From: Eledone cirrhosa
Lineage: Eukaryota
Length of the DNA: 64,000 nt
Reading direction: 5' to 3'
Assembly: GCA_964016885.1 (NCBI GenBank)
Contig: OZ024743.1
Location: forward strand, 23,498,001-23,562,000
In this document: one piece after another, positions 5,620 to 46,893 of the stretch
Position numbering within the stretch: position 1 is the stretch's first letter
Layout of the letters: every line of letters begins with the position of its first letter
Made by a program: the position numbers and the translations under genes
Notes under the pieces: model-generated
What the model saw: the letters and a program-made list of their open reading frames with translations, nothing else
Told to the model about the DNA's origin: nothing
Database searches by the model: none

Positions 5620-6520
5620 GGAAACAAGCACCACAAAACTCTGGGAGGGCTCTGTAGAAACAGTAGACAGCTTCTGCTACCTAGGTGACCGAATTAGCAG
5701 TGTAGGTGGGAGTTCGGAAAGTACAATAACTAGGGTAAGAACGGGATGGAAGAAGTTCAGGGAGCTACTACCACTGCTAGCTGCAAAAGACTTTTCCCTC
5801 AAAATGAAAGGCAGACTGTATGATGCATGTATACGAACAGCAATGTTACATGGAAGTGAAACCTGGGTGCTGTCTGTAGAAGACTTGCACAGATTAGAAA
5901 AAACGAAGCTTGCATGCTCCGATGGATGTGTAATAGTAATATACGTGAACGGCAAAGTATAAGCGATTTGAGAGAGAGACTGAGCATAAGAGGAATCAAA
6001 TGCTATGTGCAAGAGAGGAGGTTACATTGGTATGGACATGTGATGCGTATGAAGGATGACAGCTGCATAAAAAGGTGCAGAGCACTAGAAGTCGATGGAA
6101 GCCACGGAGTGGGGAGACCTAAGAATACCTGGGATGAGTTGATAAAGGCCGACCTTACACAATTGCACCTCTCAAGGGCAATGACACACGACCGTGACCT
6201 CTGGTGTCACGCAGTAATACAGAAGACCCGACTCCCCACAGGAACAAGCCAAAGTTGAAGCATATAGACAATATGCCCCCCCCCCCCCCACACTATAAAG
6301 TGGTTGTGGAGGTGCCACAGCAAAAAAGCACCCAGCCCACACTGTAAAGTGGACGTGTAGGCGCCACGGAAAAAAATCACCCAGCACTCACTGTAAATGA
6401 GGTTGGTGTTAGGAAGGGCATCCAGCCAGAATCAGTTCCTGTATGAGCAAGACAAGGTCAGCCGACTGTACACTGCTCACAACAGGACAACCCGTCTAAC
6501 CCATGCTAGCGTGGAAGAAC
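5620..6520 (+). mobile_element. RTE-clade LINE, 3' part (RT C-terminus and 3' UTR)
   Basis: VDSFCYLGD...MLHGSETW...RRLHWYGHVMRM...GRPKNTW motifs, with a frameshift. Confidence 0.9.
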
Positions 6521-8010
6521 GTGCAAGGCAATTTCCCTGAGGGGATCTGGGTTCTGTTTTCTCGTCTACTTACAAGGACCTTAGTCTTTGTCAGGTTGAC
6601 TTTGAGATCCTTTCTTTCTAGTCCCTGCTTCCAAGTTTGGAATTTCTTCTCTAGTTCTACCATAGATTCAGCTATAAGTGCGAGGTCGTCTGCATACAGG
6701 AGTTCCCATGGGCATCCGGTCTTAAACTCCTCTGTTATTGCCTGCAGGACTATGATGAACAGGAGCGGGTTAAGAACAGAGCCCTGGTGGACACCAACCT
6801 GTACGCTAAATTCCTCGCTATACTCATTGCTAATCCTAACTTTGCTGACTGTTCCCCTATACATGGTTTGTACAGCTTTCACAAACCATTCATCTACTCC
6901 TAGTTTTCTAAGGGCCCACCAGATTATAGCACGAGGAACTATGTCAAAGGCTTTCTCGAGATTGACGAATGCCAGGCAGAGTGGCTTACTTTTAGCTAGG
7001 TACTTTTCCTGTAACTGCCTCACAAGTAAGAGGGCATCAGTGGTTCCTCTTCCTGGTACAAACCCAAATTGCGTCTCATCTAGTTTCACCCAGTTCCTAA
7101 TCAACTGTGCTATAACTCTTTCTGTTACTTTGATGACCTGGTCCATCAGCTTTATACCTCTATAGTTTCCTCTGTCTAGTGCATCACCTTTACCTTTGTA
7201 GCAGTTGACAATGATGCTACTGCACCAATCCTTTGGTATGACGCCTTCTAGTATTACCTGGTTAACAATACGTGAGGTTATAGTGTCACCTGCCGACCCA
7301 GATGCCTTCAGCATCTCGGCAGCTATACCCGATGGACCGGTTGCCTTCCCCGTCTTCATATCTTTGATTGCCTTACTTACTACGCTGCTGCTGACTTGTA
7401 CTGCCGGACCCTCTATAGGGTCTACTTGAGGTAGGGTCTCTTCTTCCCATGCATTCTCCTCATTTAGTAATCTATCATAATGGCTCTTCCACGCATCTTT
7501 CTTCTCAGCACTTGTGAGGGCAAGCTCACCTTTATCATGCCGGATACACTTCTCTCCAATTACATCAATTCTCTCTGACACACTGCCTCGCAATCTTGAA
7601 CACCTCTTGTTTCTGGTCCTCACGTTACAAAACATGCTTGAATTTTCTATCCTCGGCTTCCCTCCTAGCTAAGTATACTTGTTGCCTAGCTTCCCTCTTG
7701 GTCTCTATGTAATGTACCCTGCTCCCCCCATTCTTCCATTCTTTCCATGCCTGTCTCTTGGCCTTAACTGCCTCATCTACCTTATTGTTCCACCACCAAG
7801 CCACTCTCCTCCTGCCTGTGGTCTTACTCTAGCCACAGATCTCATCCGTCGCCTCTAATAAGTTATTTTTTAGGAACTCCCAGTGCTCTTCTACATTGAA
7901 TGTCACTATATGTTCTTCTTTACTGTCGTAGGCGTTGAGTAAAATATCTTTAAATCTGTTACTGGCTGAGGGGTCTTTCAGTTTCCAGATCTTTCTTCTC
8001 CCGGTTGGCT
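6521..8010 (-). mobile_element. RTE-clade LINE, RT core
   Basis: ORF 6496-7635 has KATGPSG, YKGKGD..NYRGIKL, QFGFVPGRGTTDA, EKAFD, GVHQGSVLNP and LLYADD. Upstream is a WWNNKV motif. Confidence 0.95.
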
Positions 8011-24059: not shown

Positions 24060-24936
24060 CCCACATTGTCGTTCTATAGAGGATTAGTGGAGGGGATGAG
24101 CGACGACGTCCTTGGCGAGACTCTGGGCGTCGATGAAAATCAACTAGCCAACCTCTTCGGGAGAACTTTTGGGCCGCGGGGCCGATGGACAACTTCCAGA
24201 AATCCCTGGCCTGGCAGTGCTACCGAGGGGCTTTGCCAGTTCGGGATAAACTCTACAGGCATGGAAGTGCCGTCAGCCGGACCTGTCCTGCACGCACTCG
24301 TCCAGTGTCCGAGCATTGCTGACTTGCGGGTTTATGTCGAACACCTGCTGTCGCGTGTAGGACAGATCCGGCTATCAGCTGAGTCCATTGTGAGGATTGC
24401 CCCGCCCTCTTCCTTTAGCCGGGTAGGGCAGGCAGTTTTTATTTGTCTGGTGGCCATGGCGAAAGAGATAGTGTGGTGGACGCGTTTGAAAGGGCTGAAG
24501 ACGAGCACTTAACTCTTCCGTGATGTCCTGATTAACTTTTTCAAATTTCATTTGAAAAGGAAAATCAGGGTAGAGAGGGAAGTGCTCTCTTCCCAACATT
24601 TTGTTGAAAGATGGGTGAGAGATAGCCCGAGTGAATAGGCCTGCTCTGAGTATGCGCCTGTAAATTGAAGGTGGAAAACTGGGAGAGGCCACTTGCTCTG
24701 GTGGTCAGGGTCACTGTAGCTTTTTTAACGGGATTTCTCCACGAATGTCCCTCGGAAGTCTCCCCACTATTGGGGAATTTTTTCATTGTTTCTTTTTTTG
24801 TTACATCCTCTGTTTTTTTGTTTTTTTTACACGCAGAGATGTCCATTTGTACCGTCCTGTATTGTCCTGTATTGTCCTTAACGTTTTACTTTGTGTAAAC
24901 CCTTGTGGTTAATAAAGAAGGGATTATTATTATTAT
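24060..24936 (+). mobile_element. L1/Tx1-like LINE copy A, 5'-truncated
   Basis: Closely matches about 40375-41250, with an internal deletion in the zinc finger. Ends aataaagaa-(att)n. Confidence 0.92.
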
Positions 24937-24968
24937 AATTCTTATTTTCTTTCATTATTGTTTCTGAG

Positions 24969-25299: not shown

Positions 25300-28200
25300 A
25301 TATGTAAATACAAGGAGGGGTATCCATCTTACAGAGATAGTGCTCTTCTCAATACGTGTGCAGTACCAGTCAAAACAATTTTTTGCACCTCGTGCAGAGA
25401 CGGTAAACCAGGAATCATTCGCAAATACTGTTCTGTTCCTTTCTTGATCATTCCAAGTCCTCCCACAATCACTGGTATTGTAACGGCCTTGAGGCGCCAC
25501 ATTTTCTCAATTTCAATAACCAGATCTTTATATTTTCGTAGCTTGTCAAACTCTTTTGCCGCGATATTGTGATCACATGGGATGCTCATATCTATCATTA
25601 AACAAGCCTTGTTATGTTGATCTTTTACAATAATGTCAGGTCTATTTGTTTTTATGGTCCTGTCAGTATGTACAGGAAAGTCCCAGAGAATTGTTACTTT
25701 TTCTCCTTCAGTTACAGCCTCAGCGTGATGATTGTACCACTTCTCTTCAGCTTTGATTTTCTAATGCCGAGATATTACCCAGTGTAGATATTGGCCAACT
25801 CTGTCATGTCTATATTTGTATTCTACTTTAAATCCAGAGACTAAGTGATCCACTGTTTCAACCTCAGCATTGCAGAATCGGCACTTTGGGTTTATTCCGT
25901 TTCTCATCACATTGGCCTGGTAATTACGAGTCAATAAGCTTTGATCTTGGGCAGCTAAGATGAAGCCTTCACTCTCCGCCTTTAGCCCTGAACTACGTAG
26001 CCACTGATGGGTGTGCTTTTGGTCAACATCAGCTTGTTTGCTACGGGCCACATATTTGCCATGCAGAGGTTTCTGCTCCCACTTTGATGCTAATTGTCCT
26101 TGCCCTTTTGCTTTTGCCAGTGATTTTATGTGCCTAGCAGCATCAGTTGCAACGGTTTCTTTAGTCTGTCCAGCCTGGGTATCAAGCATGAGATCAGTAG
26201 CATATTTTTTGCTCTCCTTCAAGATAGAATGAAGCTTCTTACTTCTCTCATGCTTTTCAACAAGTTTCAGCATACAGTCGTTAGTTGTTTCAAGGTATTT
26301 GGCCAGTCCAATGATGGTGATCTTGTAAGCAAGTTCAAACGGGATCAAGCCACGGCCTCCTTGAGTTCTAGGAAGGTAAAGACGATCCACATCTGCTTTT
26401 GGGTGGTTCATCCTATTACAGGTCAGTAGCTTACGGACTTTGGTGTCGATTCTTTTGATTTCACTCATATTCCAGTTCAACACACTGAAGCTATAAGTGA
26501 CAACTGGGACTGCCAAGGAATTTATGGCTAGCACCTTATTACGAGCGTTTAGTTCTGATCTCAGAACTGCACGTACGGTCTTGTAACATTCTTTCCGTAT
26601 GCTCTCTTTCATACTTGCATGCTGAATGCCAGAGCCCTCATTAATCCCTAAGTATTTATAGGTTTGTTCCTGCTCAAGTTCCTTTATGATTATTTCAGCA
26701 TCCAATTCAACTGAGACTGAGTTGACAAGCTTCCCCTTCTTGAAAGTGGCTTTTGCACACTTGTCAAGTCCAAACTCCATCCTGATGTCATCACTAAATG
26801 TTTTTACTGTCCGCAAAAGGCCTTCCAGTTCGTCATTATCTTTGCAATATAGCTTCAAATCATCCATATAAAATAGGTGACTTATTTTTTTGTTGTCAAT
26901 TCTATAACCGTACCCTGTTCTATTAAGTTCGGATGTAAGGGGTATTAAAGCTATGCAGAAAAGCAAGGGTGAAAGTGAGTCACCCTGGAATATACCACAG
27001 TTCATCTTTATATTCCTAGAGCACAGTACCCCAGTGGAATGAGACAATTGGAAATTTGTGTTCCATAATGATATATTGTGTTTCAGGAAGTTTGAGATCA
27101 CAGGTGAGATTTTGTAGATGTCCAGTGATCTCAGAATCCATGAGTGTGGTATGCTGTCAAGGGCTTTTTTTTATAATCGATCCATGCAAAACTGAGATTT
27201 CTGTGTTTATTATGACAGTTCTCAAGGATCATACGATTAATCAAAAGTTGATCTTTGCCTCGTCGGCACCCTTTTTGTTCAATGGGGAAAAGATTGTTCT
27301 CCTCCAAAAACACGTATGCTTTTTCCATGAGAATAGAGGTTAATAGTTTATAAGTGGTGGACAAGCAGGTTATGGGCCAATAGTTTTTTGGATCTTTGGT
27401 TTCGTTGTTCTTTGGTAGAAGGTAGGTAATGCCACTTGCTATCCAATCAGGTGTATTTTTGGATCTTTCATAATTCCATTAAACAGCTTGACCAATATAT
27501 TGTGAGTGCACGGGAGTGAGGAAAGCCAGAAATTTGGCACCCTGTCTCTACCAGGAGATTTTCATTTATGAGATTTATTGAGTGCTGTCCTTAAGTCTGC
27601 TATATAGATGTCTTCCCACGCCTGTTCTTCTAAATTTGTGTAGGATGTTTCCAGGCGACTAACCCAATCTACATTAGCATTATATGTCTTCTCATCACTC
27701 CAAATCTTACTCCAGAAGTTTTCAACTTCTTTTATGGACGGGGGGGGGGGGGGGGGTGTCTTCAATCATTATTTTTTTCTTCCCTACTTCTCTATAAAAT
27801 AACTCGGCATTGGATGAGAACAACTTATTTTGCCTGTAGAAGTTGTTTCGCTTCTCGAATCTACGAATTCGTTGGGCTTTTACTTTAACTTTTTGTTTCA
27901 GAGATTATTTTGTTGAAACTATTGCTTCTCTAGAAGACAGTCCATATTTTCTCTTTAGCTTTCTTACCTTCTTGGCTCTATATACCATTTCCAGCGGTTA
28001 ACTCACTCAATAAATATATTTCTCCTCTCATTACGTCAACCTCCTTTTCGATTCTACTCCTCCAAACTGGTTTACCTCGAAGGTTCGACTTTTTTTGTTT
28101 TTTTTGGTGGTAAACAACTTGTTTCAATTACTCTAGCAGATGCATAAATGATTTCATTTAACTCAGCAAGATCAGGTTCTAGTTCTATGACTTCTTTTGT

Positions 28201-28965
28201 CACAGGATTACCAATCATTATTTGTTTTCTATTTTGGATTGTATTTGGGAGTTTTTGAAGTGGTTCTCTACCATTTATACTAGAATGTCTTACTACTGCA
28301 AGCTCATTCAGTATTTTTTGCTTTAATTCCTTCATAGTCTCCCTGTGTTCTTCAGCAGATGTTTGGTTTTCAATTACTGTTTCTAAGTCCCTCTCCTGGC
28401 TATTATGAGCGGGTTCAATAGGGCTTCTCATTTCTACAAATCTATTTGTGATTTGGTCAGATGGAGGTCTTTCAGTAAAGACTTCTGCCTGGTTACTATC
28501 TCCAGGAGATTCTTCAGTTCTTTCATCATTTATATTTATGTCATTCTCCACAGCCTGCTTGATCGCAGTTAGTTGAGTGTCTGTGAGTCTATTATTTCGG
28601 AAGATATACCTCCTTACTTTAGCCAACTTATTTCCATCCATATCACGTCTGCTAGCTTGATTCAGAGTTTTCCAGATTTTGTAGGAGTTTAAAGTGTGTC
28701 TGTCTGGTGATGGCTTACCTAATGCATAGTAATATGCATATATTACTTCTTTATACTCTTCTCGGGTCCATTTCATCCTTTTAGGTTTTAATTTTTGAGG
28801 TGGTTTGGGTGGTGGATCTGGAGGGCTCGAGTTGGGGCAATCCCCAATCAAGTGACCATCCAGGTCCATAATTGGAGAAGAGTTTGTGCCAGAGGAGGAC
28901 TTTTCGATCTCAGGTTGACACCTTCCTGGGGAAGGCGCTTCCTGATTAACCATAGGAAAAGCGAT
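25300..28965 (-). mobile_element. Near full-length R4/Dong-like (RLE) non-LTR retrotransposon, frameshifted
   Basis: N-terminal RMKWTREEYKEV. RT motifs EQKGCRR, AWIDYKK, GIFQGDSLSPLLF and LFYMDD. CCHC region CRFC..ETVDH. RLE motifs RHDRV, RPDI, IDMSIP and KLRKYKDL. Confidence 0.93.
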
Positions 28966-29044
28966 TTGCTATTGTGTATTAATTTTTATTTGTTCATCTC
29001 GCAGTACATGCTTGCGTTACGCATGGTATTGGACGTACATTATT

Positions 29045-30677
29045 GTCCAGATACTTGGCACCGCTCTCAAGGAATACGAAGCGGTGACAAGAGCAAAGAT
29101 AAACCAGGAAAAGTCGGTGGGCTTGCAGCTCGGCACCTGGAGAGGCAAGTCCATGCCGTCCGACAGCGTTGTGGGGCGTTGGACGGAGGACCGGTTAAAT
29201 TGCTCGGGGTCTGGTTCGGACCGCACTTCCAGATAGAGAAAAACTGGAACGCGATGACGAGCAGGGTGGCCTCCCTCACCCATAAATGGGCCGAGAGGAA
29301 GATGTCCCTGAAAGGCCGGGCGGAGGTGGCGAATGCGTACATCGCATCCGTCATCTGCTACCGCCTCACCGTCGTCCCTTGCTCCAGCCAAACTCTCACC
29401 AAAATGGAGCGCCTCCTCTTCCGCCTTTTGTGGAAGGGACGCGCTCCCATGGTCAGACGATCCATCTGCTGTCAACACCCGTTGCGTGGAGGACTGGGCA
29501 TGCCATGGCTGATAATGCGCAAACATGCGCTGAGGCTGCGACATCTCTGGTGCTTCCTTGATGGTGAACGGGTGTGGTCGCCGTTCGCCAGGCACGTTTT
29601 CCCACAGCTTGTCTCCTTGACGGAGCTGCAGTCCTGGGTCAGAAAAAGACCGAGGGATAGCGCTTGGAAACTGGAATGTCTCCAGGCGCTCACTGCCCTC
29701 TGCCAGCTGGGTACCAGTATCGGTGGAACATCCACCTCGGCGTTCTATAGAGGACTAGTGGAGGGGAAGAGCGACGACGTTCTCGGAGAGATCCTGGGCG
29801 TCGAAGAAGATCAGCTGTTTGCTCTCTTCCGCGGAACATTCAGCCCAGGGCCTATGGATAACTTCCAAAAATCCCTGGCCTGGCAGTGCTACCGGGGAGC
29901 GCTGCCGGTTCGAGATAAGCTCTACAGGCACGGAAGTGCCGTCAGCCGAGCCTGTCCGAGATGCGCGCAGAGCGACGAAACCGTCGTGCACGCACTCGTT
30001 CAGTGCCCGAGCATTGCTGACTTGTGGAGCTATGTCGAACAGTTGCTGTCGCGTGTAGGACTGATCCGGTTATCGACTGAGTCCATTGTGCAGATGGTCT
30101 CGCCGTCTTCCTTCGAGGAGGAAGGGCAGGCGGTTTTCATCTGCCTGGTGGCCATGGCGAAAGAGATTGTGTGGTGGACAAGGTTGAAAGGGTTAAAGAC
30201 AGACACTTTCTTCTTCGGCGAATCCCTAATTAACTTTTTCAAGTTTCACTTGAAGAGGAAAATCAGGGTGGAGAGGCAAGTGCTGCTTTCTAGCAAGTTT
30301 GTTGAAAGGTGGGTGAATGTAGCGAGAATGGTCCGAGTGAACGGGACCACTCTGAATATACGTCTGTAGTTTGAGAAATGGAAAAATTGAGAGAGGGCGC
30401 TTGTCCTGGTGGTCAGGGTGGCCGTAGTCTGTTGTGTGGTTTTCGCCACGAGTAACCCTCGGAGGTTTCCCCCTATTGGGGAATTTTTCATTGTTTCAAT
30501 TTTCATTTTTGTTTATATATATGTTTCTGTCTTTTTTTTCTTTTCTTTTATAAATAATAAAAATAGTTACACGCACAAAACCCACATCGTACCGTCCTGT
30601 ACCGTCCTGTGCCGTCTATAATGTTGTTCTTGATGTCAGCCCTTGTGGCCAATAAAGAAATCATTATTATTATTATT
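29045..30677 (+). mobile_element. L1/Tx1-like LINE copy C, 5'-truncated
   Basis: RT C-terminus (INQEKS, KLLGVWF, LSLKGR-like MSLKGR, GGLGMP) and zf-RVT CPRC..ETVVHALVQC. Ends aataaagaaatc-(att)n. Confidence 0.93.
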
Positions 30678-31097
30678 GTTCTTTGAGTCTCAGTCATTGA
30701 TGTTAGTTAACTGGAAAGTTTGTTGAAATGAATATCAAGCCACTACCTGCAGCCTCAGATATTCAGGACGTATCGGAGGGTTCTTGCTGTTCCCAGCTAG
30801 CATGCCTTTTGAAGCGTTCCAAAAAGCGTGGCGGGGCCAATTTTCTTTAACCATCCCTGGAAACTTTTTGAGATAGTACCTAGTGCGCCTATGACAATCG
30901 GGACCACTTTGACTTCATGGCAGTTCCAAATCCTTTTTACCTCCTACTTTAAGTCCTGGTATCGGTTAATTTTCTCCCTAACCTTCTCTTGCACTCTCGT
31001 GTCGAATGGGCAGGCCACATCCACAATCAGGCACGATCTTATTTCCTTGTCCAAAACCACCAGGTCAGGTCTATTGTGTTCCAGTTTCTTTTCCGTC
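30678..31097 (-). mobile_element. R4/Dong-like 3' fragment D (RLE domain and 3' UTR, (AAT)n tail)
   Basis: Near-identical to 34065-34480. NRPDLVV, IVDVACPFD and INRYQDL motifs. Confidence 0.9.
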
Positions 31098-31287: not shown

Positions 31288-34063
31288 TTGGTGAAGCCAC
31301 GCTTCTTATCGCCTCCAGTTTTTTTCAACGTTTTACCTCGTTTTCAACCGTTCTAAACCTTTTATTCAAGTTTTAAATTTGATAAAAGTTTAGAAGAAGT
31401 GACCCACCGAATACAGGGGTTCACTCGTAAATAATACGGCACCCCTTTACGGGGTGTCGTATTCGTATTTGTGTAAAAATATATTTTGAAAAAATTTCAA
31501 CATGGATAACACAAGAAAGAGAGAGAGCGCTGTCACACTACACAGAGAGAGGGAGACTTTATCAGCATGTCAACAAGACAGCGTTCCAGCGGAGGTAAAT
31601 ATAAACGAAAATATTACAAAGGAAAAGAAGATTGTTACAGATTTAAAATTAACAAATATTTCTAACACAAACAACACCAACAATAACACCAACAACAACA
31701 CCAACAACAACACCATCAATAACAACAGCAACAACAAAAATAACAGCGGTAAAGTCGAGAACGACAATAACAAAAATAACAGCGGTAAGGTCGAGAACGA
31801 CAATAACAACAGCCACAACAACAATAATAGTAGGAACAGTATCAACAAAAACAACAATAATAACAACAGCCACAATAACAGTAACAACAGCAACAGTATC
31901 AACGAAAACAACAACAACACCAACAACTGTACCAACGAAAACAACAACAATGACATCGATACCTGTAATAGCGACCTCAGTAAGACCAGTAGCGGCAGCA
32001 ATAGTGGTGCTGCTGAAAAAGGGACCACTTCTTTTGCAGGTGTCGCCCGAAATATCGAGACAGTGTTAGTCACAGAGGAGGAGATGGCAGTCGCAAGGGC
32101 CATGGTGACAAGAAGCGCCAATAGAGTCTCCTTGAAACCTCCACCCGATTTTTTCAAGGACCAGCAGCTATGGACGGTGACTTACCGCACCGTAAGCAAA
32201 ATCTCACATCGGGTGGAGAGAGCCACGGAGGCTCAAATCCAAAAGGCCTTCGAGCGCGTCTGGGCACGCAAAACCCACATCACCCGAGGCAGAAAGTACG
32301 CCACAGTAGACGTACTTTTCGCCACCCCCCAGAAAGCAAAGTCTCACTCTTTGGTAACCCTAAAGAGTGAGGAGATAGTCTTGGTGCCCTCCTACTGCGG
32401 GCAGAAGATTGTGAGGGTCAAAGTGTCCCAGGTCCTACCCGACGTGCCCATACCTTGGCTGGCCGCGTCTGTCCTTGCTGGAATAGAGAACAGGACGACC
32501 ATGCTGCAAGTAGAAAAAATAGGGAGAGAGAACTGGTCAGGTATAGGCATGCAAATGCTTATACAAACTGACCAGGAATGTATCGACTCCAACTCCCTAT
32601 AAGTGTAGAAGGAAGACGGCCAAAATGTTATCTCTGTGGGTCGAAGGGTCACCTCAGGGCCTTTTTCCCGCAGAAGACAGCAAAGAATAAGGCCCCTCTC
32701 CTTCCAATACCTGGTCCGCTGCTACCAAGAGCAGGGCAAACAACAAACGAAGAAGCCCCTTCCACGGTGAGTAGGAGGGCAACGTCTGTAGCAACCGTAC
32801 CAAGGCCACGGACAACTAAAGCAGCATCATCAGTGGCGGCAACACCAATAGCTACATTTGAAGTAGCTACACCAGCAACAAAATTGTCGAAGAGGGCTCC
32901 ACTACCACCACCAACATCCGTGGAGCACATACCCCTCCCAGACGCCACAGAATCCAACATGGAGTTTGAGGCGGGAGTGAAGTGGCAAACGGTCTGCCAC
33001 AAAAAAAAACAAAAAAGAAAAACCCCTTAGATTCACCCTCCAAAAGCGAAGGCATACAAAGAGGGGTAAAGGCGGCAAGGAAACTTGCAGCAACACCACC
33101 ACCATCACCACCACAAGCACCACTGACAACAACAACCACACCACCACCAGCATCACCAAAAACACCAACAACGCAAACACAAGACACACATACCAAACAG
33201 CAACAAGAAGAAAACAGCAACAAAATCACCCCTCCCCCCAAAAAGTACACAGCCATAAACATGGCAAAAAAAGAACTCATACAATATATAAAGCAGCACA
33301 CAGACATCACAGAAAAAAACTACTACACCCCACTAACACCAAGAACTCTCCCGACAAACATAAGCATCATCGAAATCTCAATAGAACAGTACAAATCTTT
33401 AAAACAAAAATTCCCCAACGCAGTTGGAGACTTCAGAGGGTCGGTTACCAAGAGGATATACACTGACATCCTCTTGGAAACACCCATGACCAGCGAAAGG
33501 GATGGTTCTACTGTCCCTTCACCACACGATCAAGGTAAGTGACCCTTTCTCACTTGCCCCGTTTCTCATCCAACATGGCCGTACTCAGAATAGGCAGTAT
33601 AAATGCACGTGGCCTGGGGTCATCTTGGAAGCAGGGTCACCTGCTCAACGACCTCAGGTCACTAAACATAGATGTGGTGGCCATCAGTGAGACCAGAATC
33701 TCCGAAGCACAAGCCTTCGCACCGATCTTCGGCGGCTACGATGTATATGCATCTCCCAGCCGTCCAGGATCGGGGGGGGAGGAGTTGCCGTCCTTTTTCG
33801 GAGTGGCTTGGATCTCGCGATACGGGCCATCTTCCTAGACCTAGAAGGTAAGTCGGTGGTGCTGGACGTGACCGGCAGCGAAGGAAATGCTTTCAGGCTA
33901 GTAGCCGTCTACGCCCCAACAGGGGCAGGACGGCCAGATTTCTTCAGACGTCTAGAGACCTTTCTTGGAACATCCCGCTCTTTAGTGTTAGTGGGCGACT
34001 GGAACGGTATCTTGGATGCACGCTGGGATTGTGTGAGGCTACTGGATAGGGGAGGAGGGTGCA
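31288..34063 (+). mobile_element. L1/Tx1-like LINE copy E: 5' UTR, ORF1 (31502-33542, frameshifted) and start of ORF2 (APE domain from ATG 33575), 3'-deleted
   Basis: ORF1 is homologous to copy G, with an RRM-like region and zinc knuckle CYLCGSKGH. ORF2 has LRIGSINARGL, ISETR, VAVYAP and LVGDWN. Confidence 0.92.
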
Positions 34064-35335
34064 ATGAGTCTCAGTCATTGATGTTAGTTAACTGGAAAGT
34101 TTGTTGAAATGAATATCAAGCCACTACCTGCAACCTCAGATATTCAGGACGTATCGGAGGGTTCTTGCTGTTCCCAGAAAGCATGCCTTTTGAAGCGTTC
34201 CAAAAAGCGTGAAGGGGCCAATTTTCTTTAACCATCCCTGGAAACTTTTTGAGATAGTCACTAGTGCGCCTATGACAATCGGGATCACTTTGACTTCATG
34301 GCAGTTCCAAATCCTTTTTACCTCCCACTTTAAGTCCTGGTATCGGTTAATTTTCTCCCTCTCCTTCTCTTGCACTCTCGTGTCGAATGGGCAGGCCACA
34401 TCCACAATCAGGCACGATCTTTTTTCTTTGTCCACAACCACCAGGTCAGGTCTATTGTGTTCCAGTTTCTTGTCCGTCTGTATCCTAAAATCCCACAGCA
34501 CCTTCACCTGATCGTTTTCTATCACTGCCTCTGGCTTATGCTCATACCACTTCTCAGAATGTGGTAAATTGTTTACTTTGCATAGGTGCCAGTGGATCAC
34601 CCTGCCCATCACATCATGTCTCCAGCCCTTATAGTGAGTCTGGGCTAAGTGTTTACACTCGGATACAATGTGAGCCACAGTCTCCTCTCTCTCTCTCCAC
34701 AGATCCTGCACAGTGGGCTAGCCTCCTCCTTGTAAATATGGTGTTTCAACCACTTCGTTTTGAGGGCCTGCTCCTGCGCAGCCATTAACATTCCTTCTGT
34801 AGCCTTTTTAAGGTCTCCTCTTCTCAACCAGTTCCATGTCTGTGGATCTCTAAATTCAGTTTTCTCAAAGAAGGTACTATGAAGGGATTTTTCCTGAAGG
34901 CTGCTCTTTCTCCTTGATGTTATTTCCTCCTTGGACATCCCCTGGCCTATTGTCTCCTCCTTCAGTACAGTTCTGAGCATTGGCTCCTTACTATCAGTCA
35001 CGTATTTGTGTAGGTTGTTTTTCTCCATCTGAACACAGTCCTCTATGCTGATAAGACCTCTTCCACCTTCAGATCTCCTTAAGTAGAGTCTATCGACATC
35101 ACTCCTCTTGTGGAACATGTTGTAGATAGTCAATAGCTTCCTAGTCTTCCTATCCATTTCTTTTTGTTCAGCAACATTCCATCTCAGAATTCCCGCACTG
35201 TACCTAATAATAGACACAGCTCGGGAATTTACTGCACTTATGGCATTCCTACTGTTCAGATGTGACTTTAATACGCTCCTTACTCCCCGAATGTATTCAG
35301 TTCTTATCAATTCCTTCATTTTTTTGTTCTTGATG

Positions 35336-35374: not shown

Positions 35375-35578
35375 GGCGACCTACGTAGTAAATCGTATCA
35401 TCGTGTGCTCCGCAAAGGTTTGTTATTTCCGTTTGTTAAAAATTATCATTTATGGAAAATTTTATTAACTGTTTATAAGCGCACATACATTGTTTTCCGA
35501 AAAGGACACCCAAAAAGATTGGGGCCTTGTGCCCAAAATTTAAACTTTTATTATTATCAAAAAATTTCTTTGAAAAAA

Positions 35579-37556
35579 ATGGCTAATTCACCTCTGCACC
35601 AAGCAGCTGAAAGCCTTCCTCACAAATTAACACCTCACACCGACACCACCATTGTAAATGTTACTACGTTTGCCAACACAAAAAAAAAATATAAGCAGTA
35701 GCAATATTTTAAATTTGTCTCAGGCAGACATTCATTTCCCGCCATTACCAATGACTGCAGGTGTTAAAGCCTCCACCACCACCACCACCGCGACAACAGA
35801 AACAAAAGAAGAAAAAAATAAATTAACTCGTGATGTCGAAATGAAATCAAGCAAAATGGACTCTTCCCCACCAAAGACGACTGACGTCACCACCACCACA
35901 ACTGAAACTAAAATTAATATTAACACAAATAACGATAGCAACAACAACAACAATGACATTATAAAAACGACCCTCAGTTTTGCAATAGTAGCAAAACAGT
36001 TCGAAGCATTTACGGTAACTCAGGAGGATTTAGAAAATGCCAAACAAATGGTAAAGAAAGATGGGTACAGGGACAGCCTCCCCCCCCCCCCCCACACCTA
36101 ATGAAATGGAGCATCGGCGCCTATGCACCGTGTCGTATCGAACGATAAATGTAAAATCGCGCCGAGTGGAACGGGCATCCGAGTCCCAAATCCAAAAAGC
36201 TTTGGGACATGTGTGGGCAAGAAAAACCCACATCAGACGTGGGCAGAAGTATGGAACCGTGGACGTGTTCTTTGAAACACCAGAGGAGGCTAGAGAACAC
36301 TCCATGGCCCCATTAAGAAGTGACGACTTCACACTCGTCCCAAGCTATTGTGGCCAGAGACTCGTAAAGATCAGGGTGACCCACGTTCCACCGGCCATCG
36401 AAATTCCCTGGCTAATAGCGGCCGTCCTCGCCGGCATCGAAGCCAACACAAAAATAATAGCAATAGCAAAAGAAAAGCAGGAGAACTGGTCCGGATCTGG
36501 GATGGAGCTCCTGATCCAAGCGGACCAAAAAAGCATTGAGGATATCCCAGAGGTAATAGACCTCACTGACGGCAGCCACCTCACGGTAATTGTCGAGGGC
36601 AGAAGACCTAGGTGTGTCGTTTGTGGTGAAGGAACCCACCTAAGGGCTTTCTGCCCTCAGGCTAAAAGGTTGAGGCCACCTCTCCTACCCACCCCAGTGA
36701 CACAACCATCAACACCACCAGTAGCAGAGATGGCAGCAACAACTGTAGCAGCAACAACAGAAGCAACTATAACAGCAACAACCCCAGCAACAGTAGCAAA
36801 ACCAACACCACCACCACCACCACCAGCAAAACCAACACCACCACCACCCAACGCTTCAGAACTAGCACCAGCGCCTACACCATCCACCACGCCACAACCA
36901 AAACTAACGCCTGTGGAGGATTTTCCACTCCCCGGCCTATCACAACTGGAGACAGATTGTGACGACGAGGAGTGGGAAACGATATCCGGAAAAAAAAAAA
37001 GAAACCAAAAAAGAAAAAATTCTCTTCCTTCCCCTCCAAAAACAAAATACAGAGGGAAACAAATAAACTAAGAAACAAAAAAGTTAGGACAGATATGCCA
37101 CCATCCACACCAGCATCACCAACCCCATCAACCCAAACACCAACACCATCACCATCATTAACTCCAACACCACCATCACCTACACCACAAAAGTCACCAA
37201 AATGCGAAACAGAAACAAATCCACAACAAACGCAAACAAAACAAAACAACCAAAACGATACACACTACACAGCATTAAATTTGAACAACAAGCAATTATT
37301 ACACTACATCCAACACAACACCAGCATCACAGAAAAAGACTACACAACAACCCCAAAATTCACACCACCTCCACACATACAAATCACTCGCATCACACAG
37401 AAAACGTACATGACACTAAAACAAAAATTCCCCAAAGACATCGGAGACTTCCGACAAGCACTCTCCAGGAGGATTTATAAGGACATCCTTCCTGAGGAGG
37501 CCACAAGCAGTGAAAAGGATGGAAAAACCGTCCTTCCCCTACGAGAAGTAAGGTAA
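35579..37556 (+). pseudogene. Tx1-like ORF1 (RRM-like region, CCHC knuckle, P/T-rich linker, C-terminal domain), broken by frameshifts
   Basis: CVVCGEGTHLRAFC knuckle. Segments 35658-36101, 36061-37071 and 36972-37556 each align with ORF1 of copy E. Confidence 0.8.
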
Positions 37557-37590
37557 GTGGTCTTTCCCATCTTTTCCACTCCTTTTCAAC

Positions 37591-40500
37591 ATGACCTCAC
37601 TCAGAATAGGCAGCATAAATGCGCGTGGCTTGGGGTCGTCATGGAAGCAGGGCCACCTGCTCAACGACCTCAGGTCACTAAACATAGATGTAGTGGCCAT
37701 CAGCGAGACCAGAATCTCCGAAGCACAGGCTTTCGCACCGATCTTCGGCGGCTACGATGTGTACGCATCTCCCAGCCGTCCGGGATCGGGGGAGGAGTTG
37801 CTGTGCTTTTTCGGAAAGGTTTGGATCTTGCCATACGGGCCATCTTCCTGAACCCAGAAGGTAAGTTGGTGGTGCTGGACGTGACCAGCGGAGACGGGCA
37901 AGCTTTCAGGTTAGTGGCCGTCTATGCCCCGACAGGAGCAGGGCGGCCTGATTTCTTCCGGCGTCTGGAGACCTTTCTTGGAACGTCCCGCTCTTTAGTG
38001 TTAGTGGGCGACTGGAACGGGATCTTAGATGCACGCTGGGATTGTGTGGGATTAGTGGATATGGAAGGAGGGTGCAAGAGTCTCACCAACCTGCTCAGAC
38101 GTTTTGAACTGTCTGACAGGTACCGAATGGATTTCCCGAATGTACCAATGTGGACTTGGACAAATCGCATAGGGTCATCCAGATCATATCTAGATAGAGT
38201 ATTTTGTAGGGAAATAGATAGGTCTAGCATAGGCTGTCCACAATTCAAGATAGTCAGCTACACGGACCACAAATTCGTGATCTGTGTGCTTGACTTAGAT
38301 AGGCTTCATAGGCGAGGACCCGGCTACTGGAAGCTAAACGCGTCCTTACCAGCGCGCAAGGCCTACAGAGACCGGATTAGCGAACTAGTTAAGCGGGCGT
38401 TGATGGGGGCCATCGTCAACAACAAGTGGTGGTTTGCTCTGAAAAGAGCAATTAGAATAGAGTCCATTAGGTTTAGTAAGACTTTAGCAATAGAGAAAAA
38501 TAGAGCAGAGGGAGAACTAGTTAGAAAATTAGATGAGGCGCTTAGCAAAGGCATCGCGACCGACGTACTTGCGGCGAAATTGGCCCTTGACCAATTCTTC
38601 AATGCAAAGCACGAAGGCTGCGTTGTCAGAGCTAGGGTGCGTGCTCTCAGACACGAGGGGACGAAAGCCGTTCAATGGGCCCGAGTGGCGGAGGCGCGTC
38701 GTGGCAACAAAGCCACGATCCGGTTTATGGTGGACCACGACGGGCACATGCTACTCGATCCCGGGCAAATGTGTGAAACTTTTCAGCGACACTTCGCTCA
38801 ACTGTTCGGGGGCAGTGGCGAGCCGGATCGAGGGATGGACTTTAGTGTCTACCTCGACGGACTGCCGCGGCTTTCGGCCACTGAGGCGGAGTGTTGCGAA
38901 AAGCCGATAACAACCGCTGAAGTACGGGATGCAATGACTAGTTGCACAAGGGGTAAATCGCCTGGTTTGGATGGTCTGCCCTATGAACTTTACGTACAAA
39001 TGCCAAACTTGTTCGGAGGCCTCTTGGCGGACGTCTACTGCAACTGGCAACAGAACGGGAGAATTCCCAGCTCTGTGAGCCGAGGAGCGGTGGCGCTGCT
39101 GAGAAAGGATCCGAACAAGGGGGATAACATAGATAATTTTAGGCCCATAACTCTGCTAAACACAGAGTTCAAGATTTTGGCCAAGGTGCTAGCAAAGAGG
39201 TTGGCGCTTGTCGTTGGTGGTCTGGTGGGAGAGGCACAGACATGCGCCATTCCCGACAGATCCATCCACGACAATTTCCACCTCATACGATACATCGTAG
39301 AGAGGGTAGCTAGGGAACCTGGCACGGGTGGGTCTTTGATCAATTTAGATCAGTCGAAAGCCTTCGATAGGATCGACCATCGTTACCTAGAGGCAGTCCT
39401 GAGGGCGGCTGGCTTTGGGCCCGTCTTCAGAGGCTGGATCGCTGCCATGCACAGCAACATCTGCTCTGTAGTGAGAGTGAACGGTCACCTTTCGGAACCG
39501 TTCAACATCATGCGCTCGGTCCGCCAAGGATGTCCCCTCTCGTCCCTATTGTACGTATTGACTCTCGAGCCATTACTGCACAAACTGGAGACGTTGAGGG
39601 GGATCCCGCGCGAACTAGGATGCGGAAGATCCGTGTCAGCATATGCCGACGATGTCACCGTAGTGGTGTCGAACGCCAAACACATCGAGGCGATCGGCAC
39701 TACACTAAGAGAATACGAAGCGGTGACAGGAGCAATGATCAACCAGGAAAAGTCAGTGGGCCTGCAGCTCAGCACCTGGAGAGGCAGGTCCATGCCGTCC
39801 AACAGCGTCGTCGGGCGCTGGACAGACGGACCGGTTAAATTGCTAGTGGTCTGGTTCGGTCCAGACCTCCAGACGGACAAAAACTGGGACGAGGTGACGA
39901 GCAGGGTGGCTTCTCTCACCCAGAAATGGGCCGAGAGGAAGCTATCCCTGAAAGGTCGAGCGGAGGTGGCTAACGCGTACATCGCGTCTGTCATCTACTA
40001 CCGCCTGACCGTCGTACCTTGTCCTAAGCCCCGCCTGACTGCGCTGGAGCGTTTGCTCTTTCGCTTCTTGTGGAGGGGACGCGCTCCGATGGTCAGGCGG
40101 TCCATCTGCTGTCAACACCCGCTACGTGGAGGGCTGGGCATGCCGTGGCTGATGATGCGCAGACACGCGCTCAGGCTACGACATCTCCACCTCTTCCTCG
40201 ACGGTGATCAGGTGTGGTCGCCGTTTGCTAGACACGTTTTTCCCCAGCTCGTCTCCTTGACGGAGCTGCAGTCCTGGGTCAAGCGAAGACCGAGAGGGAG
40301 CGCTTGGAGACTGGAATGTCTTCAGGCGCTCACAGCCCTCGACCAATCGGGCAATGTGATCGGTGGAAACTCCACCTTGGCGTTCTATAGGGGATTAGTG
40401 GAAGGGAAGAGCGACGACGTACTTGGAGAAACTCTAGGCGTCGACGAAAATCAACTAGCCAATCTCTTCGGAAGGACTTTCGGGCCGGGGCCTATGGACA

Positions 40501-41009
40501 GCTTCCAGAAATCCCTGGCCTGGCAGTGCTACCAGGGTGCTTTGCCAGTTCGGGATAAACTTTACAGGCATGGAGGTGCCGTCAGCCGGGCATGTCCGAG
40601 ATGCGCACAGGGCGACGAAACCGTCCTGCACGCACTTGTCCAGTGTCCGAGCATTGCTGACTTGTGGGTTTATGTCGAACACCTGCTGTCACGTGTAGGA
40701 CGGATCTAGCTATCAGCTGAGTCCATCGTGAGGATTGCCCCGCCCTCTTCCTTTAGCCGGGAAGGGCAGGCAGTTTTTATCTGTCTGGTGGCCATGGCGA
40801 AAGAGATAGTATGGTGGATACGTTTGAAAGGGCTGAAGACGAGCACTTACCTCTTCGGTGATGCCCTGATTAACTTTTTCAAATTTCATCTGAAAAGGAA
40901 AATCAGGGTAGAGAGGGAAGTGCTCTCTTCCCAGCATTTTGTTGAAAGATGGGTGAGAGAAGCAAGTATGGCCCGAATGAATGGGCCTTCTCTGAGTATG
41001 TGTCTGTAA
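37591..41009 (+). pseudogene. Tx1-like ORF2 (APE endonuclease, RT, zf-RVT), with one frameshift near 37790 and one in-frame stop at 40707-40709
   Basis: SINARG, GDWN, SYLD and TDH (APE). KSPGLDG, FRPITLLN, DQSKAFD, VRQGCPLS and AYADD (RT). CPRC..H..C zinc finger. Confidence 0.93.
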
Positions 41010-41758
41010 ATTAAAGGTGGAAAATTGGGAGAGGGCACTTGCCCTGGTGGTCAGGGCCACTGTGGTCTTTTAATAGGCTTTCTCCACAAATGTCCCTCGG
41101 AAGTCTCCCCCCTATTGGGGAATTTTTCTTTGTTATTTTATTTCATCCTCTGTTTTTTTTACACGCAGAAATGCCCATTCGTACCGTCCTGTATTGTCCT
41201 GTACTGTCCTTAATGTCTACTTTATGTAAACCCTTGTGGTTAATAAAGAAAACATTATTATTATTATTATTATTATTATCATTATTATTATTATTATTAT
41301 TAAGTATCTCGAAACGTGGCACAGATCAGCGGATTAAGTTTATTTTTGTTTACGTGCTTCTAAAACATTTTTGACAGAACATTTCATATTGTTTTCTGGC
41401 CTAAACCAACCATCTTCCGCGGCAGCTGGTTGGTTTCCCTCATTAAGAGCTAAATCTGTGTTTTCTTTTTCACAAACACGCTCCTCAATTTAAAAAAAAA
41501 AAGACATGATGGACAAGAAAAATTCGTTTTGACACCATTAGTTGACAATTCAATCCATCCTTAGTGGGGAACTTGCGCGAACAAAGCCACGGACGTTGAA
41601 GTTGTCTGCCCCCTCCGGCTTTCTTCTTTCTTTTTCAAAATTGTGTTTTGGAGAACCTTGCTGACGAGGACGAGGCATGAGGCTACCGACAAAAAAAACG
41701 CCGGCAAAGCCAGGGAGATCGGGGACCGGAGGCCAATGAATATATTATATATTATATA

Positions 41759-44214: not shown

Positions 44215-46893
<2,679 letters not shown>

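Follow-up and report, generated by a model that had tools for sequence, protein, structure and literature searches.

A 64,000-nt stretch of the Eledone cirrhosa genome, hereafter the window, contains bicistronic, Tx1-like LINEs in which a 5' splice-site consensus overlaps the stop codon of ORF1. Our preferred reading, held with about even confidence, is that this donor likely binds U1 during transcription and is then masked, by a predicted helix, by the element's own 3'UTR; completed transcripts likely remain unspliced, with translation of ORF2 likely starting at its own ATG. We base it on the motif and its conservation in two phases, on the complementarity of the 3'UTR from which the helix is predicted, on the lack of intron-less copies and on the junction of a hybrid subfamily.

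The reference element, copy G, is full-length and lies on the forward strand, as do all features below (35375..41301, end approximate), with 5'UTR, ORF1, spacer, ORF2, 3'UTR and an (ATT)n tail that is preceded by an AATAAA signal (41242..41247). ORF1 (35579..37556) contains a P/T-rich linker and, by eye, a CCHC knuckle, and a Pfam search matched it to no family; in intact relatives it is about 700 aa long. ORF2 (37591..41009) encodes an APE endonuclease, a reverse transcriptase (RT) and a zf-RVT domain, and its start codon (37591-37593) lies in a Kozak context (37587..37594) that is kept in 14/14 subfamilies. Copy G is damaged by frameshifts in ORF1, another frameshift near 37787 and a premature stop at 40707-40709, upstream of the family stop at 41007-41009. 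The second element, copy E (about 31290-34065), is cut at about 34065 and lacks its 3' end.

The Pfam domains of ORF2 (Exo_endo_phos, RVT_1 and zf-RVT) represent the combination of APE, RT and C-terminal zinc-binding domain that characterizes L1/Tx1 elements. Consistent with this class, the elements have a separate ORF1, no LTRs, a 3' poly(A) signal, a simple-repeat tail and many 5'-truncated copies. ATT repeats flank copy G, and the 5' ends of all three elements looked at (G, E and L137) follow such repeats. We presume that these LINEs belong to the Tx1 clade; the label Tx1-like, as opposed to L1 proper, derives from domain order, repeat targeting and octopod relatives. A metagenome scan returned no distant relatives.

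As the earlier note had pointed out, both copies carry AAG/GTAAGT on the ORF1 stop (GT at 37553 in G and 33535 in E), followed by a pyrimidine-rich spacer and CAAC-ATG (ATG at 37591 and 33575). A given 60-nt stretch would contain the donor 8-mer by chance with a probability of 0.0012. In G the consensus occupies 37550..37558 in phase 2, with the TAA stop (37554-37556) inside the donor; in E the donor, spacer and ATG span 33532..33577, the donor is in phase 1, and the stop TGA (33540-33542) follows G-K. This phase difference is family-wide rather than copy-specific. The consensus overlaps the ORF1 stop in 14/14 Tx1-like subfamilies (ORF2 55-97% identical to G in amino acids), in phase 2 in nine and phase 1 in five, on TAA, TAG or TGA stops and with 25-52 nt between GT and ATG. 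Six of the 14 are represented by one copy, and the count leaves aside L143 with its 30 old relatives, L067 (deletion) and one unrelated L146 match.

Within the motif, -2 A, +5 G and +6 T are each found in 13/14 subfamilies, while positions -1 to +3 are forced by the alignment anchor. No flanking position (-30 to -3 and +7 to +22) exceeds 11/14. For comparison, four-fold sites of ORF2 show 42-53% identity when G is set against distant subfamilies, and 18/84 are invariant over 9 lineages. Positions -3 and +4 (A/G) vary freely and +5 G and +6 T are fixed, which is the pattern of a 5' splice site, and in 13/14 elements scanned the donor ranks at or near the top among sense-strand matches to U1. 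The old relatives of L143 retain a recognisable donor in roughly a third to a half of cases, judged by eye. L143 itself, a lone old copy whose next best match is 76%, lacks donor and spacer, and was rejected as a clean splice product, as its deletion is imprecise. Since nucleotide-level conservation of the donor extends far beyond copies G and E, sequence comparison upholds the suggestion that the family may keep a U1 site for regulation.

Several neighbouring signals were considered and set aside. Within ORF2, each copy repeats the 9-mer of the donor (GT at 37861 in G and 33848 in E), but most other subfamilies do not keep it, so it is no conserved second donor. An upstream AATAAA near -355 occurs in 6/14 subfamilies and likely reflects codons. 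Against a guarding role of U1, no conserved cryptic poly(A) signal was found in ORF2. A frameshift or readthrough signal at the ORF1-ORF2 junction was rejected because the ORF1-to-ATG frame takes all three values.

The donor and spacer of G (37552..37580) are complementary to a purine run and anti-donor located just past the ORF2 stop (41016..41043), 3.4 kb away. These arms are predicted to form a helix of -41 kcal/mol; duplex energies of this kind are inflated by purine-pyrimidine complementarity. The element's own 3'UTR window is the best of 181-281 windows in 12/13 families. Shuffle z-scores are -2.3 or lower in 11/13 families, whereas MAML and MADI fail to beat shuffles (z -0.6 and -1.0). 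In lineage-matched comparisons, the cognate partner ranks 1-3 of 13 in 11/13 families, and MAML and MATI show no preference for their own partner (ranks 12 and 7). The test excludes L125, L126, L129, L139, L146 and L147, which have no ORF2 end, L152, which has mixed ends, and L143. A separate E-type 3' fragment in the window has a 3' arm (30360..30425) that scores -47.6 with the E 5' arm versus -34.4 with that of G, and for both E and G arms pairing with the own tail type is favoured by about 10 kcal/mol. Copy E, being cut before its 3' end, would itself lack the predicted helix lock.

The helix is retained in co-folding of 350+350 nt, and in most families the start and stop codons of ORF2 mark where it closes. 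An alignment of 9 families yielded no inter-arm helix. Two-sided changes number 1-5 per lineage group, and these counts represent few events because related families share ancestry. The predicted helix of the MAI group leaves bases +2 to +4 of the donor unpaired. The anti-donor is more variable than the donor; pairing alone therefore does not account for the invariance of the donor. Both this partner strand and the hybrid subfamily described next were missed in the earlier note.

The hybrid subfamily G2 (2,412 matches) follows the ORF1 sequence of a parent from a sister family, termed E', up to the exact exon end of the E' donor and resumes with G sequence, at 96% identity, just after the CAG at 37508..37510, likely a cryptic acceptor used once. 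E' is the ORF1 parent at 19/25 loci, about 90% identical over 1.2 kb where intact. The breakpoints coincide exactly with a GT donor and the position after an AG in the two parents, as in SpIREs, the spliced retrocopies of human L1. The acceptor has no pyrimidine tract. From these sequences, G2 likely represents a retrotransposed, spliced read-through RNA from two elements, and its junction makes it likely that the donor is splice-competent. Template switching is a possible alternative origin, because the hybrid is one event and its junction contains 2-nt AG microhomology. Neither intermediate of a two-step origin was found.

Among 17 G-type copies diverging at +1 to +3, none has a canonical spliced join; such searches miss about a quarter of arbitrary exon-2 sequences. 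The odd donor junctions were identified as one deletion with GG microhomology, one inversion, one chance match and one 28-nt fragment. Runs X1-X3, which look like genomic DNA, have no joint at the donor among the 15 listed of 145 joints. In X5 and X6, whose kind is not on record and which are not counted as evidence, contigs run through the donor unspliced, and none of 4 joints is at the donor. Conserved acceptors inside ORF2 (+83 and +415) are explained by codons and have no retrocopy.

We propose that U1 occupies the donor while the RNA is being made and that this may confer protection from premature termination across 3.4 kb of ORF2, similar to the Arabidopsis element EVD. Once transcribed, the 3' arm would release U1 and mask the donor through the predicted helix; the full-length RNA would stay unspliced, and ORF2 would be translated from its own ATG and not as a spliced fusion. 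An unlocked donor, in a 3'-cut copy or where transcription reads on into the following element of a tandem array, could splice, and one such splice may have founded G2.

A tentative alternative is that ORF2 as a whole is a regulated 3.45-kb intron whose removal leaves an mRNA for ORF1 alone, just as copia elements make one for Gag, with the helix switching between the two RNAs. The stop codon of ORF2, a TAG, would itself act as the acceptor, or in G the 3'UTR CAG at 41168 would. A donor sitting on a stop codon fits this arrangement, as does the ORF2 stop, which is TAG in 10/13 family representatives, mostly followed by G; joining donor to TAG gives a stop within one extra codon in 7/10, versus 4/20 in other-frame tests. 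The G lineage lacks the TAG (the stop is TAA in copy G) and instead has a strong acceptor-like T-rich tract ending in CAG (41136..41168), present only in the G and H131 lineages. However, other explanations exist for these features, since the Kozak context and spacer are paired with the TAG-G and nearby stops, and conserved C-terminal residues are encoded by the pyrimidine tract. MATI, MTRL and H131 do not fit, and by lineage the agreement is about 4/6, near chance. Four pattern searches, which covered the MAI, MAVI/MADI, E and G types and had no positive control matched to each pattern, found 0 ORF2-less retrocopies; these could be rare, since an ORF1-only RNA, having no ORF2, would depend on copying in trans. 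A more speculative idea is that the whole RT gene is held as a self-locking optional intron: the helix between spacer and 3'UTR would decide between full-length and ORF1-only RNA, and a donor without its lock would splice into the next element and exchange ORF1s among families, by which new active LINE lineages could arise.

It is unlikely that the helix itself is what selection maintains, for translation or stability, with the motif read by a protein or at the DNA level and donor activity as a side effect. Such a helix could place the ORF1 stop and ORF2 ATG beside the 3'UTR and poly(A) tail, which would help reinitiation or spare the RNA decay on account of a 3.7-kb faux 3'UTR, and it agrees with this that in most families the helix closes at the start and stop codons of ORF2. 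Motif variation nevertheless tracks the 5' splice-site pattern, and the G2 junction falls exactly on the motif. Precedents for both roles appear in the portions consulted of two papers: CU-rich elements after a stop shield RSV RNA from decay (PMC9143442), and human L1 keeps its donor because this is a site for RUNX3 (PMC5860796).

The earlier proposal that a 52-59-nt mini-intron fuses ORF1 to ORF2 is highly improbable and already largely refuted: 0 copies precisely lack the spacer, versus 2,303 intact G copies that keep the 52-nt segment, and 0 among the first 100 listed of 629 E matches. Removing 37553-37604 (52 nt) does, as claimed, place G ORF1 in frame with ORF2, and copy E does need a second acceptor, the TAG ending 33593 (59 nt), its first CAG (54 nt) being out of frame. 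The proposed acceptors in G (37602..37609; CAG ending 37604 and TAG ending 37609) are codons 4-7 (L-R-I-G) of the endonuclease, downstream of ORF2's own ATG, which is conserved with its Kozak context within the would-be intron. G, G2 and MAVL each offer an in-frame YAG (at 52, 53 and 58 nt), and the other phase-1 families have a second or third YAG in frame; yet the first downstream YAG is in frame in 5/14 subfamilies, about what chance gives, and among these five, one gives a 27-nt intron and one would delete 27 endonuclease residues. MATI (29 copies aligned) contains no in-frame AG near the ORF2 start, and for MADI the intron would have to be 39 nt long and end in AAG. Across the subfamilies the GT donor is conserved, in two phases, and an in-frame YAG acceptor at a workable distance is not. 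For comparison, spliced human L1 copies amount to about 2% of full-length ones, according to the part of the source consulted (PMC5860796).

The guarded donor touches on three open questions: how one RNA gives high ORF1 and low ORF2 protein, how that RNA stays both unspliced and stable, and how new ORF1s and 5' ends are gained. The U1 site of 9 nt and its 30-bp partner at a distance of 3.4 kb make all three open to point-mutation and compensation tests. If true, a hybrid joined by splicing that ranks among the most numerous subfamilies would make splicing a creative means of ORF1 exchange.

The literature searched, with most subscription papers and Repbase reports outside its coverage, contains no account of such a donor-helix LINE; the comparisons below draw on partial texts of the cited papers. 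The Tx1 clade of L1-group non-LTR retrotransposons includes a microsatellite-targeting Kibi/Koshi type (PMC4494074), and Octopus vulgaris has 13 recently active L1-Tx1 families (PMC13282606). The elements described here share with the Kibi/Koshi type two ORFs, an APE-RT-zf-RVT ORF2, simple-repeat insertion and tandem arrays, but their target is probably (ATT)n, and the portions consulted mention neither a donor on the ORF1 stop nor an ORF2-enclosing helix (PMC4494074, PMC13282606). In the Arabidopsis Ty1/Copia element EVD, U1 makes a Gag-only RNA possible and keeps the unspliced RNA from terminating prematurely (PMC5580714). EVD likewise has a conserved U1 donor between structural and catalytic genes, a precedent for a dual-use donor; unlike these LINEs, it is an LTR element with a single ORF and a local intron with a conserved acceptor, and the text consulted describes no 3'UTR lock (PMC5580714). 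The negative regulator of splicing of RSV harbours a 5' splice site that is a decoy and binds U1 without productive splicing, as proposed here, and the RSV stability element is pyrimidine-rich and follows the first stop, as does our spacer; RSV is a retrovirus, however, and 3'UTR pairing is not described in the sections consulted (PMC9143442). In L1 and SART1, ORF2 is produced by termination-reinitiation; as in the elements here, it would come from an unspliced bicistronic RNA across a spacer, but no splice donor is involved, and looping has been suggested for L1 (PMC5972666). Finally, human L1 also has a conserved, rarely used donor and spliced RNAs that retrotranspose; that donor lies in the 5'UTR and is kept as a RUNX3 site, whereas the donor here is on the ORF1 stop, and SpIREs are dead ends, whereas the G2 hybrid grew to about 2,400 copies (PMC5860796).

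Judged by domain order, repeat targeting, and octopod relatives, the element represented by copies G and E is a Tx1-like LINE. Copy G (35375 to about 41301), which carries APE endonuclease, RT, and zf-RVT domains, is full length but broken and belongs to a young family (all of its best 40 genomic matches are near 100% identical); its nearest named relatives are proteins of Argonauta hians and Octopus sinensis (two of five matches), which points to a probable octopod host. Copy E is a member of a sister subfamily, cut at its 3' end. Their ORF2 proteins are 96% identical over codons 1-69 (37591-37800 in G, 33575-33781 in E) versus 77% beyond; either a recombination event or an RNA element lying just past the start codon may underlie this difference. 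The window also holds two plus-strand 3' fragments of this family (24061-24962 and 28792-30683), two minus-strand RVT_1 fragments of other RTs (25761-27170 and 6496-7668), and a plus-strand 597-aa frame with a weak RVT_1 match (44824-46893), which we take to be Penelope-like. Elsewhere, LINE copies form head-to-tail arrays (e.g. L100-L103) spaced by ~5.8-6 kb, often of mixed subfamilies, consistent with insertion of elements into one another's ATT tails. One short sequence recurs next to several element ends (at about 30680-30710 and 34066-34090 in the window, and beyond the tails of loci L132 and L150) and is probably the end of a different repeat whose ATT tail serves as target. Locus L152, with a MAVL-type ORF2 start and a G-type 3' end, may be a further recombinant or a nested insertion.

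Rereading the sequence confirmed the 9-nt splice donor consensus AAG/GTAAGT on the ORF1 stop (GT at 37553 in G and 33535 in E), as well as the pyrimidine spacer, the CAAC-ATG start of ORF2 (37591 and 33575), and the AGs at 37604 and 37609. Loci drawn from 6,632 and 2,006 matches to degenerate ORF2-start patterns defined 14 subfamilies, eight as consensus of 4-35 copies and six as one copy each. The donor overlaps the ORF1 stop in all 14, 25-52 nt upstream of the ATG, and its phase varies (phase 2 in nine, phase 1 in five). The alignment anchor fixed positions -1 to +3 beforehand; outside it, A at -2, G at +5, and T at +6 each occur in 13/14 subfamilies, compared with at most 11/14 for flank positions. 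By chance, the donor 8-mer is expected in a given 60 nt with a frequency of 0.0012. ORF2 proteins are 55-97% identical to that of G. At four-fold sites, distant subfamilies share only 42-53% identity with G, and across nine lineages just 18 of 84 such sites are invariant. Because two phases and three different stops (TAA, TAG, or TGA) occur under the donor, codons do not account for its conservation.

In G, the donor and spacer (37552-37580) are predicted to pair with the 3'UTR (41016-41043) at -41.0 kcal/mol, compared with -11.7 for a U1-like duplex. Among 13 representatives having both ends, the best of 181-281 windows was the one following the ORF2 stop in 12, the helix outperformed shuffles in 11 (z -2.3 to -5.8), and the element's own partner arm ranked 1-3 of 13 in 11; the MAML subfamily failed all three tests, MADI the shuffle test, and MATI the ranking. 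Within the window, each arm is predicted to pair better with tails of its own type: -47.6 for the E arm with an E-type tail versus -36, and -44.5 for the G arm with G-type tails versus -34.4. Lineage alignments contain 1-5 two-sided changes, and a nine-family alignment yielded no inter-arm helix. In most families, the predicted helix closes at the start and stop codons of ORF2, which is looped out. In the co-folded model, a T-rich 3'UTR tract (41097-41204) pairs in addition with the A-rich end of ORF1 (37406-37454), possibly extending the clamp outward.

The 3' arm facing the donor varies more than the donor itself, from which we infer a reader acting in trans, most simply U1. The favored arrangement, which we regard as an even prospect, is that U1 would occupy the donor while ORF2 is being transcribed, and that the 3' arm, once made, would mask it; the RNA left unspliced would serve translation and copying, and donors lacking this lock would be able to splice. 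The leading alternative, though an unlikely one, is that ORF2 is a regulated intron, removed whole from the donor to its stop TAG or to a 3'UTR acceptor. ORF2 ends in TAG in 10 of 13 representatives, and in 7/10 of these a donor spliced to that TAG would regain a stop within one codon (other frames, 4/20); the G lineage has TAA, but offers a 3'UTR acceptor at 41168. However, few lineages stand behind this pattern, the ORF2-stop bases also pair in the predicted helix, and four genomic pattern searches returned no retrocopies lacking ORF2, a result of little weight given that an RNA of this kind depends on ORF2 supplied in trans. Less probable still, the helix might serve translation or avoidance of decay, with a reader other than U1 for the donor motif, for which RSV elements, as described in the available part of PMC9143442, provide a parallel.

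The earlier proposal of a 52-59-nt mini-intron fusing ORF1 to ORF2 is very improbable, as no intron-less genomic copies were found at either acceptor, versus 2,303 copies with the segment between identical flanks. For comparison, 131 of 6,609 full-length human L1 copies are spliced retrocopies (PMC5860796, available text). E-type searches allowing any gap gave 629 matches, with the spacer present in all of the first 100. None of the 17 G-type sites diverging at +1 to +3 (sensitivity ~75%) is a canonical splice product: they carry point mutations or other small changes, apart from one deletion at a microhomology, one inversion, one fragment, and one chance match. Only 5/14 subfamilies have their first YAG in frame, including one 27-nt intron and one case losing 27 endonuclease residues, and the single AG option in MATI (29 copies) is AAG, out of frame. 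In an older subfamily (L190-L218), a CAG 5 bases upstream of the ORF2 ATG would be in frame with a phase-1 donor, yet the introns would measure only ~32-45 nt. Since the ATG and its Kozak context are conserved in 14/14 subfamilies inside the would-be intron, ORF2 is likely translated from its own ATG, as reported for L1 (PMC5972666, available text).

Use of the donor is suggested by the hybrid subfamily G2 (2,412 matches; loci L137, L062, L063, L072, L081-L083, L088, and L090), in which two homologous ORF1 ends lie side by side in tandem. The upstream part matches the parent family E', a sister family of G, and ends exactly at the exon end of the E' donor; the downstream part is 96% identical to G and begins directly past CAG 37508-37510, with one extra G restoring the frame to the stop of G. 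Of 25 loci (L219-L243) examined among 102 matches, 19 were the E' parent and six G2 variants. The junction is a GT-AG join of two elements, as expected from read-through RNA of a tandem array, and G2 probably arose through splicing. A template switch at the shared AG is possible, and for two-step recombination genome searches found neither intermediate. Copy E, upstream of G in the window and without the 3' lock, exemplifies such a tandem arrangement. SVA_F1 is reportedly a precedent for a subfamily founded by splicing.

Our literature search, which covered main texts, identified no LINE with both an ORF1-stop donor and an ORF2-enclosing helix, nor did the available portions of PMC4494074, PMC13282606, PMC11203168, and PMC8770142 describe this combination. 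A model for the proposed U1 role at the LINE donor would be EVD, whose donor, according to the accessible part of PMC5580714, prevents premature termination.
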